From: a virus
Taxonomy: Duplodnaviria > Caudoviricetes
DNA length: 44,707 bases
Direction: 5' to 3' (one strand)
IMG/VR virus record: IMGVR_UViG_3300030332_001221
Span: 1 to 44,707 of that record
The translations under genes and the position numbers were made by a program. Below, in pieces: positions 10,294-44,707 of the stretch (position 1 is the stretch's first letter; every line of letters begins with the position of its first letter). The notes under the pieces were generated by a model that ran no database searches, had not been told where the DNA came from, and saw nothing but the letters and a program-made list of their open reading frames with translations.

Positions 10294-11433
10294 CTAGGCA
10301 ATCTCCGTTTTGGAGAACATGCCGCCGTCAGCGTCGAGCCTCTGGCGCGCCATCTCGGCGTAGTCGGGGTTGAGTTCGATCAGGATTGAATCCCGGTCCA
10401 GGCGGTCGGCGACGAGGCCGACGGTGCCGGAGCCGGCGAAGAGATCGAGAACGACGGCCGGGACCGGAACGCCGCCGCACTCGCAGGACAGCGACCAGCC
10501 GAGGGTTTTTATTTCACGCCACGTCCGCCCGTTGGTTCTCAGAGCGCTTGATCCACTGACGCCCCTTTCGTCGGCAGCCGGCCGACCATGGGTATGAATT
10601 TTTGCCTCCCCAGATAATTCTCCGGTTTCCGTCTCCCGCACCCACGGCACTCCGCATTCCGGGCAGACGCCCTTCTCCGATGTCCCTGCCTTGATGCACG
10701 GCTCGACTAGGGCCGGGGGGAAGGTGGCGAAATGGGCACCCGGATAGGAGCGCGTGGCGATGTGCCAGACATTGCGGAGGTTGGCGCCGTCATGGCGGGG
10801 CGTCGAGCCGCGCCGTGTCTGCTTGTCTCTTTTCGGATTACGCTTTGTATTCCCTCCATCATTACGGCATGGGTTGGTAGTTACGCTATCGCTTTCATCA
10901 CGCCAATCTGGACGGGCGGCCGGCACCCTCACCGCCTCGCTGTCGTAGAAATACCGCGCCGACTTGGTCAGCAGAAACACCTTCTCGTGGCTTGACGTGG
11001 GCCTATCCGTGACACTCTCGGGCATCGGATTCGGCTTCGCCCAGATGATTTCCGAGCGAATCCACCAGCCGTCTTCCTGCAAGGCGATGGCCAGCCGCGC
11101 CGGCATCATGCACAAGTCTTTCTCCTTGAGTCCTTGATGTCTGGTTGCTCTGTTCGCGCCGCCCTGCATGTGAGTCCGAATGTTGTGATAGCAATCGCCA
11201 TAATTGAGCCAGACCGTCCCGTCCTTGCGGAGCACCCGGCGGACTTCGCGGAACACCCGAACCATGACCTCGATATGCTCGCCCACGGTCGGCTCCAGGC
11301 CGATCTGCCCCGCGACGGAATAATCCCTCAAGCCCCAGTAAGGCGGACTCGTCACCACGCAATGCACCGACTCGTCGGGCAGTTCGCGGAGCTTGTCGAA
11401 AACATCGCCAACGAGAATGCGCGCCGTCATCAC
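10294..11433 (-). CDS. N4-cytosine/N6-adenine DNA methyltransferase (beta class)
   Basis: [22 protein letters not shown]; CPEC/CEC insertion. Confidence 0.9.
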
Positions 11434-11654
11434 TCGTTCGCCGGCTCCGCCAACGCCAGCAGCCGCAACCGTTCTCCGGGGGTAGCGGCGCCGTGGGCTG
11501 CAAATTCATCCATCCGCTTCACGCCCGGCCAATGCTTCGCCAGTACCTTCTGGCAAAACGGGTCTATTTCCACTTGACCAACGCATTCCATCCCAGCGCG
11601 TTCGAGGCCCAAATCGAACCCGCCGATTCCGGCAAAGAGCGATAAAAAGTGCAT
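11430..11654 (-). pseudogene. N-terminal remnant of C5-cytosine methyltransferase fused to unrelated tail
   Basis: [13 protein letters not shown] (motif I), VEIDPFC..LAKHWP; no PCQ or ENV motifs. Confidence 0.8.
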
Positions 11655-40048: not shown

Positions 40049-42469
40049 TCAATACCCTGTCGTGCCATTTCGTCCCTCATCTTCTCCCCAATCGTCATAC
40101 TCTTCAGCCTCGTTCTCTGGAATATAACCTTTAGCAAAGGTCAAACACACCGCGTCGGCGATATCCGGGCTACGTTTAACCATCGGGTTCTTCTTCATCT
40201 CGGCTTTGGACTCAACCACCCGCTTGCCCGTTGAAGTGATGTTGTAAGTCACCCCGCTCAATTCCGCGACCATCCGCTCGTCTTTAGGCATCCAACAATG
40301 CCGTTGCGCGAACCAATCCCGCGCTTCAAACCACAATTCATCGCGTTGGCGCATGAAATCCGCCTTCACGGAAGCGTTCTCGGCGACGTTCACCCCGCAG
40401 ACCGGTAAACCTATTTCCGCGAGCCGATCCACCACGCCAGCACCGTAACCGATCACGTCCACAAGAATCACCTCGGGCCTAAGCTCCAGAGCTTCGTCTC
40501 GATAAGCCTGAGCAATCAACCCGGCCACCTGCATGGTGTCCTTGTTGTTCCAGACCTCCGCCGGCCGAAGAATGGCGTTGTAAGACCGTCGGACGAGCGC
40601 CGTTCTGTCATCGCCAAAACGCGCCACGTCCACACCCCAGCGAATGTTTGTGTGGACGATATCCACTTCCCGCTCCTGAGCGGACTCCAAAAGCTCCAAC
40701 GGGATAATTACATCCTTGTCCGATATCGGAAACTCCCCGAGATACCGATATCGGAACATATTAGAGTCTTCGCCATACTCGTCGATCAACTCCTTCCGAA
40801 ACGTATCGGCGACACGGTTTGGAACCTCTTCACACGACACCCGGCGTGTCCACCACAAATCACGATGCAAGTGGAACGCATTGAAAAAATACCCCGACGC
40901 CCGTGTCGGGTTGCCCGTCATGATCGTCTTCGCGCCGTGTGACGACATCACCCCGCGAGTCGCCTCGAAGACCGACTCGTCAATCCCTGGAGCCTCGTCA
41001 TACACAAAAAGCATATGTTTGGAATTGCCAGACAAAAACGCGCACCCATTTCGACGAGTGAAAAAAGTTTCTAAAGGAGTCGATACACACCAGACTCTCC
41101 CAGAATACGGCTCCCGACGAATGTTTTTTGTTTTTACAATGTGATCCCGTTTATTTGTCCAAGAAATCACGTAGCAGATACGCGATTTTTGGATCGCTAC
41201 CCCCCGAACCGTTTTTGCTACACCGGCCCCGCGATTAATACCCAGCTTTGCCGCCCTTCCTAACTTCAGAAGAATTTCTTGAACTTGGTCTACAAGAAAT
41301 TTATTCGTATTATAAAATTGTCGTCTCTTCCCTCCTTCAAAAGACCCCTCCGCTTGCCACAACCCCTCACACAGCGCATCCAACACGCTTTCAGGACCAT
41401 TCATAAGAAAAACGGGAATTACACGGTCAGCGCCATAGCGCCCGACATTATCAATCAACCATTCAGCAAGATTTCTATCCGAAATCGCAAAATAATCCTG
41501 CGCCTGCGTATGACGAAACTTTTTAAGAACCCGGCGAAGAAACGGCGAGTCTTTAGCTTGATAAAGCAGGGTTTCATAAAAGACCCCAGAACTGTGTCGC
41601 CTTACTCCACCATCTCCTATCCAAAATCCTATAAACTCCGCGACTTCTTCCTGAGAAAGCTTATATTTTTTAAATACCTGCGGTACTTCAAATTCATCCC
41701 CACCCCACCCAAGCGACCGTCGGATCATAAATTGTCCAGCCATCTCTGACAGGCTTTTCATTTTCCAATTTTTAATCCGCTCAAGATATTTTGTAGGGAA
41801 CCGATGCTCATCCGTTACAGAAAAACTAACCCCTTGAGCCTCGTAGACATTCATTTTCCCCACAAACGGGTATACATGAATCTGATTTACCGGCTGCCAT
41901 GAAACCGTATCCCCGTTTACCGGGGCCGACAAAACACAATCGTCAAGCGTTATCTCATCTAACCCAAGCCAACCTCTCCGGGTCAAAATCTCGTGATCTT
42001 CAGAAAGACAATGAAGACCCTGCAGCGCATCGGGGTTTTCCTTCCGCGCCGTACTCGCCACCGCGAAATTTTCTACCTTATCAACGGCTTTGGTGGAATC
42101 TTCAGCAAAAATTACTCTATCGGTCTGAATTTCCAGTACATTCCGCAAAAACGCGGGGAGCTTGTTATGCCAAAGACGAATTTCCGCCCATAAAACATTC
42201 CGCAGCTGCTCCTTTGAGTTCGCCGTGCAGCCTACCTTCACCGGCCGGCGGGTCAGCATCCACCACAAGATCACCCACGACAGGAAAGTTGTCTTCCCCA
42301 CCCCATGGCCTGAACGAACGGCAACCCAGTTATTGTCAACAACAGCTTGAAGAGCTTCGGCCTGCCACGGCTCAGGCTCCGCCCCGAAGCACTCCCGCAC
42401 AAACAACACAGGATCGAGACGCCATGCCATTATCTTCGCAAGTTGCTTCTCGTTGTCGTCCTTGCTCAT
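40049..42469 (-). CDS. terL: Terminase large subunit containing an intein
   Basis: SGHGVGKT Walker A, VYDEA Walker B, TGNP, GVDVARFGDD, SPDIADA. Confidence 0.93.
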   Translation of the reverse strand: MSKDDNEKQLAKIMAWRLDPVLFVRECFGAEPEPWQAEALQAVVDNNWVAVRSGHGVGKTTFLSWVILWWMLTRRPVKVGCTANSKEQLRNVLWAEIRLWHNKLPAFLRNVLEIQTDRVIFAEDSTKAVDKVENFAVASTARKENPDALQGLHCLSEDHEILTRRGWLGLDEITLDDCVLSAPVNGDTVSWQPVNQIHVYPFVGKMNVYEAQGVSFSVTDEHRFPTKYLERIKNWKMKSLSEMAGQFMIRRSLGWGGDEFEVPQVFKKYKLSQEEVAEFIGFWIGDGGVRRHSSGVFYETLLYQAKDSPFLRRVLKKFRHTQAQDYFAISDRNLAEWLIDNVGRYGADRVIPVFLMNGPESVLDALCEGLWQAEGSFEGGKRRQFYNTNKFLVDQVQEILLKLGRAAKLGINRGAGVAKTVRGVAIQKSRICYVISWTNKRDHIVKTKNIRREPYSGRVWCVSTPLETFFTRRNGCAFLSGNSKHMLFVYDEAPGIDESVFEATRGVMSSHGAKTIMTGNPTRASGYFFNAFHLHRDLWWTRRVSCEEVPNRVADTFRKELIDEYGEDSNMFRYRYLGEFPISDKDVIIPLELLESAQEREVDIVHTNIRWGVDVARFGDDRTALVRRSYNAILRPAEVWNNKDTMQVAGLIAQAYRDEALELRPEVILVDVIGYGAGVVDRLAEIGLPVCGVNVAENASVKADFMRQRDELWFEARDWFAQRHCWMPKDERMVAELSGVTYNITSTGKRVVESKAEMKKNPMVKRSPDIADAVCLTFAKGYIPENEAEEYDDWGEDEGRNGTTGY
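41024..42010 (-). mobile_element. Intein (329 aa) with LAGLIDADG-type endonuclease
   Basis: LQGLH|CLSEDHEILTRRGW ... VWCVST...FFTRRNG...SGN|S; FIGFWIGDGG and LCEGLWQAEGS. Confidence 0.9.
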
Positions 42470-42562
42470 AAAATTCCCATAGAAAAAGACGAACGCCAGT
42501 AAAAGAAGCCAACCAAAGCCCCAAACTACCCATAAGCCCCAACCCAAACGCTCGGCGGCTAA

Positions 42563-42643
42563 TCACAACGCAGCGGCGTCGTTCTTCCGGGGGTTCCTGG
42601 CATACGGCACGACCTGGCCGACCGGCGTAAGAGCTACCTTCAT
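42563..42643 (-). pseudogene. 26-codon relic of a ParB-like N-terminal domain
   Basis: MKVALTPVGQVVPYARNPRKNDAAAL* matches the PYARNPR.ND.A start of phage ParB-like proteins. Confidence 0.55.
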
Positions 42644-42948
42644 TCCGCCCTGCCGTTGCCTAATCCCTTTGACCTTTTCCCAGGATCACCGCCGGGGGTT
42701 ATAAACCTGCCCGTTTCTGGGTCTTTGCCACCATGCGGGCACCGTTGCCCTATAACAGGGACTATTGAGCTTGACATAGCCGCCCTTCGCTCGGCGACGG
42801 GCCATGACATCAAAAGGCTATACGTCGAATGATGGCTCCCAAAGTCGTCCAAGCGTCCGTTCAGCGCCTTCAAGCAAGCGAAGAACGCCGGACATTCAAT
42901 GATCTCCTTCGGGACATAGGAGTACATTCGGTCCATCAATCTAGACAA
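42640..42948 (-). CDS. Hypothetical protein, C-terminus resembles a TerS N-terminal motif
   Basis: KDPETGRF.....PG.R.KG at the end; upstream of TerL. Confidence 0.45.
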   Translation of the reverse strand: MSRLMDRMYSYVPKEIIECPAFFACLKALNGRLDDFGSHHSTYSLLMSWPVAERRAAMSSSIVPVIGQRCPHGGKDPETGRFITPGGDPGKRSKGLGNGRAE

Positions 42949-44707
42949 CTCCCGTTTCGGAGAATAGCGGCGTGTCGGCGCCCTGGATGTGAGCGAACCG
43001 CGCCTTGATGTCCTCGAAATATTCCTCTTCGCGTTCGATCAGGACGGGCTTGAAGCCTTCTCTGATCGCCGCCATGCCGGTCGTCCCAGAACCCGCAAAG
43101 GGATCAAGAACGGTGCCGCCCGGCGGCGTTATCAGGCGAATGAGATAAGCGATTAGATCGACCGGCTTGACCGTGGGATGCTTGGAATTGAGGCGGTCGG
43201 CTTTGTCCGCCTTGGCTGTGTAGAAGAACCGGGCGACGGTGCCGGTATCGCCTAGCCCGCCGAAGTTTGCCCCGCCGTGACGCATTCTTTTTGTATCCTC
43301 ACGTAGATTTTGAAAGTTTGGGCCGGCGGATTTGATTGAGGCTTTACCACTACCCCCTGAAGATTTGCTTACCCCATATTTCGCAAACGCCTCCATCACA
43401 TCGCCCGAACCATCATGGATGACGTTGGCGGGCCAACGGCCTTTGTTTGACCCTGTTATATATGGCTCTTGGAGCGGCTGAACCTCCCCGATTTTTCCAG
43501 TCATATAGGACGATGAAGAACGGGCATGCCTTGTTGTCGTATCTTCTGTTTCAACCCGGCTTGCGTCGATATTCAACGCCCCCGTCCCATGCTCCAACAC
43601 GTTCGCCGCCACGGTGCCGATTAGAGGTTTGCGGGCAAGGATGATGGGCTCACAACCCGGTGCGATCTTCCCGGTTTCGTCCTGGGAGAAGATGGCATCC
43701 TCGCTTAAAGCATTCTCTGCCGCAGAAAGTTCTAGGATGATTCTTAACTTCGATACGGCGGCGTTGAAATATCTTGCCACATGTGATGCATCGGCATTCG
43801 ACCAAGCTCCCAAGCTGTGGGCCTGGATGATGCATCCTGGCGTGATCTTTGACAGACACAACTTCAAGGTTTTCAAGTCGGTTGTCGTCTCTAATGCCGT
43901 TTCGGTGGTGGACGTGTTTGAATCGGTCCAACTTGAAGCCAAGGTGGTGTTCCATGATGACACGGTGCTCAAGCTTGAAATCAGCGCCAACACGAATTGC
44001 GACATATCCATCCGAGCGCACAAAGCGTCCCGTGTATTGGATGCGTCGTCGGCAGTCCATTGAGCAGAAGCGGACACGTCCACGCCGTAACCGCTTGGGC
44101 TTAACGCTGAATATTTTTCCGCAGCATTCGCAGGTAACATCAACCATAACCGGCTCCATAGCTTCCAAAGCGTTGAACCAATTATGGTCATTTCGTCGCA
44201 GGTTTCAAGGGGTTTCTGCGCCCAGATTAGGGGCTCATGTGAGGGTTTAAGAGCGGTCCCCCAGCCGGCCCATTGCTTGGCGGCGTCGGTGGCGGGGCGG
44301 TAGCGGGGGCGGTAATGGTGGCTTCGCCAATGACTAAATGTTCCTTTTGCGGGCGCGGCTGGTGCGGGATGCTTGCCAATAACTTCCCGTTCCGCGCCAG
44401 CCGCCTTGTCGATCCCCTTGCTCACATCATGACTTTTCGGAAACCCCGAGCCGTACAGCCACATGATCGTGTCGCGGATTTCAAAGCCCGCATCCTCGAC
44501 GGCGCAAGCGACACGGTGAAACGTCCGGCTCCCCCCGAAGATCAGCGCATGACCGCCGGGCTTGAGCACGCCGAACACAGCCCGCCAGGTCTCGGGCCGG
44601 AAAGCGATGTCGCCGCCGTCCCACTTTTTGCCCATGAAGCCAGCGGAAAGACTCGCATACCTGGCGTTGCCGGACCGCTTGACGATGCTGGTCAGATGAT
44701 ACGGCGG
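42941..44707 (-). CDS. N4-C/N6-A DNA methyltransferase (beta class), 5' end outside window, with 195-codon insertion
   Basis: Frame open to window edge (PPYHLTSIVKR); FMGKKWD, WLYGSGFPKS, GRWPANVIHDGS, HPTVKP, VLDPFAGSGTT. Confidence 0.9.
   Translation of the reverse strand, partial: PPYHLTSIVKRSGNARYASLSAGFMGKKWDGGDIAFRPETWRAVFGVLKPGGHALIFGGSRTFHRVACAVEDAGFEIRDTIMWLYGSGFPKSHDVSKGIDKAAGAEREVIGKHPAPAAPAKGTFSHWRSHHYRPRYRPATDAAKQWAGWGTALKPSHEPLIWAQKPLETCDEMTIIGSTLWKLWSRLWLMLPANAAEKYSALSPSGYGVDVSASAQWTADDASNTRDALCARMDMSQFVLALISSLSTVSSWNTTLASSWTDSNTSTTETALETTTDLKTLKLCLSKITPGCIIQAHSLGAWSNADASHVARYFNAAVSKLRIILELSAAENALSEDAIFSQDETGKIAPGCEPIILARKPLIGTVAANVLEHGTGALNIDASRVETEDTTTRHARSSSSYMTGKIGEVQPLQEPYITGSNKGRWPANVIHDGSGDVMEAFAKYGVSKSSGGSGKASIKSAGPNFQNLREDTKRMRHGGANFGGLGDTGTVARFFYTAKADKADRLNSKHPTVKPVDLIAYLIRLITPPGGTVLDPFAGSGTTGMAAIREGFKPVLIEREEEYFEDIKARFAHIQGADTPLFSETGVV
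43650..44147 (-). CDS. HNH endonuclease with two zinc-finger domains, nested in alternative frame of the MTase
   Basis: EHRVIME.HLG..L....HVHHRNG.RDDNRLENL....H...H; CECC..FCSMDC and CITC..FCGREC; GGAG SD 6 nt before ATG 44147. Confidence 0.88.
   Translation of the reverse strand: MVDVTCECCGKIFSVKPKRLRRGRVRFCSMDCRRRIQYTGRFVRSDGYVAIRVGADFKLEHRVIMEHHLGFKLDRFKHVHHRNGIRDDNRLENLEVVSVKDHARMHHPGPQLGSLVECRCITCGKIFQRRRIEVKNHPRTFCGRECFKRGCHLLPGRNREDRTGL

Follow-up and report, generated by a model that had tools for sequence, protein, structure and literature searches.

A likely splicing-avoiding homing endonuclease cassette carrying an out-of-frame HNH gene within an unbroken phage DNA methylase gene

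Results

Genes and features of the locus

The window, i.e. the whole 44,707-nt stretch of DNA that was analysed, corresponds to an entire assembly made up of a single, phage-like contig. On its minus strand, the open reading frame of a DNA methylase runs from 44707 to 42941 (588 aa) and is still open at the window end at 44707, the 5′ end of the gene lying beyond it; a complete and near-identical copy of this methylase is protein P0001 (637 aa). As proposed in the initial annotation, the methylase frame is free of stops across an insert of 585 nt (195 codons), and an alternative frame on the same strand of this insert, from 44147 to 43650, encodes a complete zinc finger/HNH/zinc finger protein that takes up around 85% of the insert length. 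Its match to HNH_3 (E = 1.2e-10) is above the Pfam cutoff, and CxxC motifs lie on either flank. The finer details of that annotation also held: a GGAG is found at 44157-44154, 6 nt ahead of the HNH ATG; two versions of one methylase motif bracket the insert, at 44251-44207 and 43666-43622, 195 codons (585 nt) apart; and the HNH stop codon is the TGA of the second TGAGCCC copy. The features are listed below in the direction of transcription, starting with the host gene.

42941..44707, minus strand: host gene, beta-class N6/N4 DNA methyltransferase (Pfam N6_N4_Mtase, E = 3e-27)
44207..44251, minus strand: upstream motif copy, LKPSHEPLIWAQKPL, first half host-derived and second half insert-borne
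43646..44230, minus strand: putatively mobile insert, 585 nt; a contig of run X16 skips exactly this stretch and the motif profiles switch at the same codons
44181..44208, minus strand: predicted sigma70 promoter, TTGAAA, 16 nt, CATAAT; the sole such site in 43500-44400, conserved in homologues
44154..44157, minus strand: Shine-Dalgarno (SD)-like GGAG, 6 nt before the HNH ATG; an SD is present in 55/80 homologues
43650..44147, minus strand: out-of-frame HNH endonuclease gene, zinc finger/HNH_3/zinc finger, 165 aa (HNH_3, E = 1.2e-10)
43622..43666, minus strand: downstream motif copy, IAPGCEPIILARKPL, first half insert-borne with the HNH stop and second half host-derived

By fold search and by profile search of insert-free alleles, the structures nearest to the methylase were CcrM and M.BceJIV, and the fold search with the methylase model matched beta-class methylases, with CcrM ranking first. 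An assembly chimera, which the initial annotation had named as a danger to its reading, was rejected, as single contigs from runs X2 and X8, which belong to two other studies, cover 42900-44582 and hence the insert and both flanks; they differ from the window by two differences and one 27-nt indel outside the insert. A 27-nt in-frame methylase segment (43273-43299) is present in the window and missing from runs X2, X8 and X12 and from P0001.

Two other genes of the window were also noted. A second N6/N4 methylase (10297-11505, minus strand) has a CxxC ... CxC stretch ahead of the SAM-binding motif and no long insert. A terminase-like gene (40049-42547, minus strand; weak Terminase_6N match) carries between CLSED and GNS a LAGLIDADG_3 domain that is apparently an intein, a second selfish element near the methylase.

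Limits of the insert and the two motif copies

One DNA contig of run X16 skips exactly 43646-44230, with 7 letters shared at the joint, and the insert boundary can slide by up to 7 nt (to 43653-44237), a stretch that corresponds to the Glu-Pro codons. The motif profiles of the filled alleles were compared with those of 61 non-redundant empty alleles. Among the 80 filled representatives described below, the upstream copy keeps K (79), P (79) and E (80) as in the empty alleles and then loses P (15) and R (17), while A (70), K (76) and P (75) are found in the rest of it. Up to the Glu, the downstream copy has K in 11 and E in 48, followed by P in 65, I in 60, R in 66, K in 74 and P in 78. Both copies therefore switch between host-like and element-like at the Glu, the upstream one matching the empty alleles through this residue and the downstream one matching them after it. 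Together, the X16 contig and the motif profiles place the insertion point at the Glu-Pro codons. A puzzle described for the homologous ShiLan insertion, that filled alleles have Thr or Ser where empty alleles have Pro (PMC11855218), is explained by this placement, because the residue belongs to the insert.

The X16 joint has a depth of 63 vs 14.9 for the insert contig of the same run; the shorter side of the joint contig is 51 letters long at 85% likeness, and nearby contigs carry further differences. At this likeness the joint contig may come from a related phage, and its greater depth and the differences of nearby contigs fit the empty allele of a co-occurring relative. Runs X17-X20 yielded fragments only, in which the joint was not seen.

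The TGAGCCC repeat to which the initial annotation had drawn attention is present in the window, at 44237-44231 and 43652-43646, but does not stand as a general feature: an in-register nucleotide repeat at the motif copies is absent in 51/80 homologues and reaches 7 nt in only one. The median nucleotide sharing between the two copies is 51%, and identical residues share their codon in 184 of 579 cases, which is chance level. As judged from these comparisons, the two copies are kept as amino acids, not as a nucleotide repeat. The insert-borne half-motif likewise has wobble-biased, protein-like conservation, with 80 synonymous to 79 non-synonymous changes.

In the AlphaFold model of an empty allele, the motif forms one strand (residues 205-212) with high confidence. 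When filled P0001 was modelled, the methylase core stayed confident and the downstream, host-derived half appeared as a confident core strand (413-417, block pLDDT 85), whereas the insert was of low confidence (40-65) and the insert-borne half-motif (residues 218-226) had a pLDDT below 50.

Selection on the two reading frames

Homologous loci were collected by alignment in the HNH frame, keeping all 35 genome matches and the best 80 each of 568 viral and 280 metagenome matches, and were therefore not selected for an open methylase frame. Among the matches kept, 214 loci had an HNH match, and in 141 of them a methylase flank was present, its frame always standing in the same relation to that of the HNH; the 127 loci with both methylase flanks were grouped at 90% identity into 80 clusters, whose median pairwise identity is 57%. 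Flanks were assigned by motif pattern plus alignment, 15 loci being gained via the alignment, and the representatives include L070, with a different HNH at the same site, and the short variants L053 and L063. An earlier, HNH-only scan had found one real relative (L001) among 9 loci. The catalytic motifs are conserved, with EHR in 79/80 and HHxN..DNRxxNL in 78/80 representatives, and the HNH stop falls -2 to +10 codons from the downstream motif copy in all 80.

In these 80 representatives, which share a common ancestry and are not independent draws, the methylase frame of the insert contains a single stop in 12,269 codons, compared with 396 expected by synonymous recoding or 161 by codon shuffling. 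It is open in 79/80, compared with 0.9 or 11.3 expected, respectively. In contrast, the third frame has 813 stops vs 624 expected, i.e. no depletion. Therefore, read-through of the insert is selected, and the stop avoidance that the initial annotation had suggested testing in both frames is seen in the methylase frame and not in the third frame; inserts with stops, which would have spoken against that annotation, are far from common. For the window alone, the open frame over the HNH gene has P values of 0.0026 (synonymous recoding) and 0.009 (codon shuffling). In 73 HNH relatives outside methylases, the corresponding frame has 263 stops in 7,312 codons, and only 6 of the 73 are stop-free.

The exceptions were three of the 141 loci: L020 and L144, with one stop each, and L057, with 12. 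In L057 (1285-1992), the element is present, the methylase frame stops just after the upstream copy and the downstream methylase half was not found; this locus is read here as a broken or truncated allele.

When 35 close pairs were compared, the overlap was seen to change most often at the HNH wobble position, and the host flanks were wobble-biased in their own frame. The methylase-frame residues of the insert change mostly non-synonymously (1,465 to 381 synonymous), whereas the host codons beside the insert in filled alleles give 152:62 and 288:180 synonymous to non-synonymous changes. By these patterns, the protein constraint is borne by the nuclease frame, and the host frame mainly needs to stay open. 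As a protein query, the methylase-frame insert found 34 proteins, 33 of them annotated as the same methylase family.

Predicted expression signals of the HNH gene

The last letters of the upstream motif copy are also part of the predicted -35 box. By the rules used, a -10 box is present in 70/80 homologues and absent from 10, compared with 387 of 1,747 control windows (22%) that have one; -35 matches of at least 4/6 were found in 34 of the 70 at a spacing of 16-18 nt vs 11 of the 70 at 9-11 nt. The -10 box coincides with a conserved 'Ile-Ile' of the methylase frame, the first Ile codon of which is ATA in 36/36 cases, compared with 185/1,157 in the host flanks. The SD follows the -10 box, most often 21 nt later, and by the rules used is missing from 25/80 homologues. 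The promoter and the SD are predicted from consensus matches that are backed by conservation. In many elements, the stretch from promoter to SD holds a moderately conserved AG....AACCTA, 6-18 nt downstream of the -10 box.

According to the description of the ShiLan gene (PMC11855218), the HNH starts there at a leaderless GTG 18 nt into the insert, without a ribosome-binding site, and has 195 aa. This GTG lies upstream of the ShiLan -10 box, and in the ShiLan DNA another GTG, 26 codons downstream of it and giving 169 aa, is preceded by TATTCT and GGAGG. In the window, no start at 18 nt is available, as an HNH-frame stop (44207-44205) lies downstream of that position, and the start is an SD-led ATG. 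The conserved -10 box and SD ahead of the HNH contradict the leaderless proposal, and the leaderless GTG is treated here as an annotation choice of that paper, probably not a family feature. In a search of literature that included few subscription journals, no report of an internal promoter, an SD or the Glu-Pro boundary was found.

Filled and empty alleles and other nested genes

When empty alleles were sampled by the N-terminal part of the host gene, 74/80 nearest host genes proved to be empty, reading KPAxEPIxLARKPL once, the insert-free form for which the initial annotation had proposed to look. On trees of the host N- and C-terminal halves, filled alleles are intermingled with empty ones, requiring 25 and 26 changes, of which at least 4 and at least 7 are forced by strong branches; these FastTree trees have weak support (about 15 starred branches of around 100), and gain is not separable from loss on them. 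Homing of the element would be consistent with this distribution, and the same conclusion on mobility is drawn for actinophages in the 2023 ShiLan paper (PMC9957025).

Further nested open reading frames were scanned in the same methylase family, 32 in total, which were picked for lying in open methylase frames and so provide no test of stop avoidance. Of these, 21 reach the HNH Pfam cutoff (two being the ShiLan-type element itself), one falls below it and 10 have no match. They occupy seven further sites: before KAIDK, after ARKPL, after GxRV, after RWPAN, at RFFY, before HPTVKP and after TPP. The ARKPL- and RFFY-site types are HNH-like by motif only, and the RFFY type also appears to duplicate a host motif, another predicted strand. 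The search for other alternative-frame HNH inserts at the original site, also suggested by the initial annotation, was productive and included a second HNH type: L230 (2127-2783) and L070 (537-1121) carry a different HNH subtype at the same site with the duplicated motif on the flanks.

Several other arrangements were observed. L230 has a second nested open reading frame at the RFFY site. In L053, L057, L157, L172 and L186, out-of-frame HNH genes are found within intein-like inserts in the same methylase family. The methylase gene of L234 has a remnant of about 40 residues, a mini-element in which both motif copies and the frame are kept and the HNH is lost. In L074 (1489-2022) and L110 (1354-2016), HNH relatives lie antisense in non-methylase genes, within open frames longer than 1,100 codons.

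Discussion

The 585-nt insert, which carries a complete out-of-frame HNH gene inside an unbroken methylase gene, is likely a splicing-free homing endonuclease cassette. Splicing would not be needed, as the methylase is likely translated through the whole insert, carried as a passenger loop of around 195 residues. The HNH would be made from its own internal transcript and, during co-infection, would nick or cut empty alleles near the KPAxEPIxLARKP codons, whereupon the cassette would be copied into the empty allele by repair. Insertion would split a beta-strand at Glu-Pro, and the ends of the cassette would re-encode the missing motif halves, giving the apparent duplication. We infer homing, expression and methylase activity. 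The overprinting of a tolerated loop, one of the two possibilities raised by the initial annotation, is supported by the purging of stops in 79/80 inserts and by the lack of an intron or intein signature.

HNH genes are often carried by group I introns, so an unrecognised self-splicing intron had to be considered. It is extremely unlikely, given that an Rfam search of 42500-44707 returned only three weak matches, far below gathering scores, and that of 20 homologous loci returned none, so that the group I covariance match named by the initial annotation as a threat to its reading was not seen in these searches. In addition, no consensus RNA structure was found in an alignment of 30 of the 80 representatives (conservation index ≤0.03), the usual group I boundary residues (U before the first junction, G before the second) occur in at most 9/80 at any register, and the HNH alone fills most of the insert. 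The other possibility raised initially, that ribosomes hop or DNA recombines between the motif copies to restore an empty methylase, could appeal to the 7-nt in-register repeat of the window and to the X16 contig, joined exactly there. Bypass of the T4 gene 60 type has matched take-off and landing codons, a stop after take-off and a conserved RNA structure; here, there is no stop after take-off, codon matches are at chance level and no RNA structure was detected. As the repeat is not conserved, the copies are kept as amino acids, the X16 joint fits the empty allele of a co-occurring relative, and skipping has no need for an open frame, this possibility is not supported and appears very unlikely. 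The lack of intron, intein and nucleotide-repeat signals argues against splicing or skipping in general, and the purging of stops is left unexplained by splicing, hopping or deletion.

An open frame would also be needed, and the conservation of both motif copies as amino acids would fit, if the methylase were read through and the insert then removed or cut as protein, by an unknown kind of splicing or by proteolysis, with the half-motifs letting the fragments reassemble. Inteins have C, S or A at the first junction and N or Q followed by C, S or T at the second, and such residues are found in no more than 2/80 at any duplication register; a Pfam scan of the whole methylase gave methylase-type matches only and the methylase-frame insert had no PHROGs match, so the initial statement that no Hint or intein ends are visible was borne out. 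Although split phage enzymes that reassemble after insertion of a homing endonuclease are known, as in Aeh1 nrdA (PMC2988022), removal as protein is unlikely in view of these results and of the mostly non-synonymous change of the insert residues. Finally, the filled methylase might be inactive or weak, its frame staying open only because stops would have polar effects on downstream genes: the methylase is non-essential according to the ShiLan paper (PMC11855218), and a strand modelled with confidence in the empty allele is interrupted by the 195 inserted residues. This is quite unlikely, however, as the flank codons are still wobble-biased in filled alleles, and DPPY and D-x-F-x-G-x-G are invariant in 66/66 filled methylases, 37 of which had been pre-selected for those motifs.

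Within the preferred reading, that of a cassette translated straight through, the insert-borne half-motif may help folding, or may serve as an imitation of the homing site next to the -35 box, comparable to the I-TevI operator. More specifically, it is conceivable, though doubtful, that the half-copy is a cleavage-resistant look-alike of the homing site, still readable as methylase, through which the HNH would repress its own promoter: it abuts the -35 box, loses the near-invariant Pro and Arg codons of the host and keeps Ala-x-Lys-Pro. If so, ShiLan-type elements would be self-regulating, splicing-free homing cassettes occupying at least eight sites in one methylase family.

The novelty implied by the initial annotation did not survive: the same element, at the same site and with the duplicated motif, had already been described as the ShiLan domain (Gosselin et al. 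2023, PMC9957025; Arsenault, Gosselin and Gogarten 2025, PMC11855218). The arrangement itself is not new, a homologue having been described; it is real and strongly selected. The published description is based on about 10 actinophage copies that are nearly identical, and two questions are left open in it, namely splicing of the insert and the way in which the nuclease is made. The 80 divergent copies now place read-through under selection and suggest a specific candidate for the promoter, the ribosome-binding site, the start codon and the insertion point, making the published questions directly testable. Moreover, many phage methylases annotated with long Ser/Thr-rich regions likely hide nuclease genes missed by gene callers.

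The methylase of mycobacteriophage ShiLan is described as carrying a 202-aa stop-free insertion that hides a zinc finger/HNH/zinc finger gene out of frame, the first 11 residues of which insertion resemble the host sequence after the site, with no intron or intein signature reported (PMC11855218). The same set of features is found here: a stop-free in-frame insertion into an N6/N4 methylase of this family, located at the same site, with an insert start resembling the downstream host motif; a homologous zinc finger/HNH/zinc finger open reading frame on the same strand, ending at the 3′ boundary; and a patchy spread among homologous methylases. The window HNH is 43.5% identical to the hidden HNH of ShiLan (gp65) over 96% of its length (E = 4e-32), and a closer copy, in cyanophage Cr-LKS3, is 62.5% identical. 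As the HNH is homologous and the methylase site is the same, the element is the one already described: alignment to gp65 gives a homologous host gene with the site GWGTALKPS.EP..A.KP ... EPIxxARKPL, and the relative frame, the open host frame, the duplicated motif and the lack of an intron or intein signature are shared. The two differ in that the window comes from a marine phage, not an actinophage, and that its HNH is about 10 residues shorter. The interpretations also differ, as the ShiLan paper puts the boundary after Leu-Lys and the start at the leaderless GTG, whereas the boundary is placed here at Glu-Pro and the start is taken to be SD-led, with an internal -10 box ahead of it.

Out-of-frame nucleases of inteins, from actinophages and a cyanobacterial dnaX intein (bioRxiv 10.1101/2025.01.02.630785 and 10.64898/2026.09.14.751524), share a second frame over an open host frame and selection on the nuclease frame; there, however, the host-frame passenger is spliced out, whereas no intein signature was found here. 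Insertion of a nuclease gene into a conserved part of a host gene is likewise known from Aeh1 mobE in nrdA, T4 mobA and I-TevI, and T4 intron endonucleases such as I-TevI possess internal promoters of their own as well as an operator similar to the homing site (PMC2988022). In those cases, the host gene product is divided into two polypeptides (mobE and mobA) or RNA splicing is needed (I-TevI), whereas in the methylase described here the host frame is continuous.
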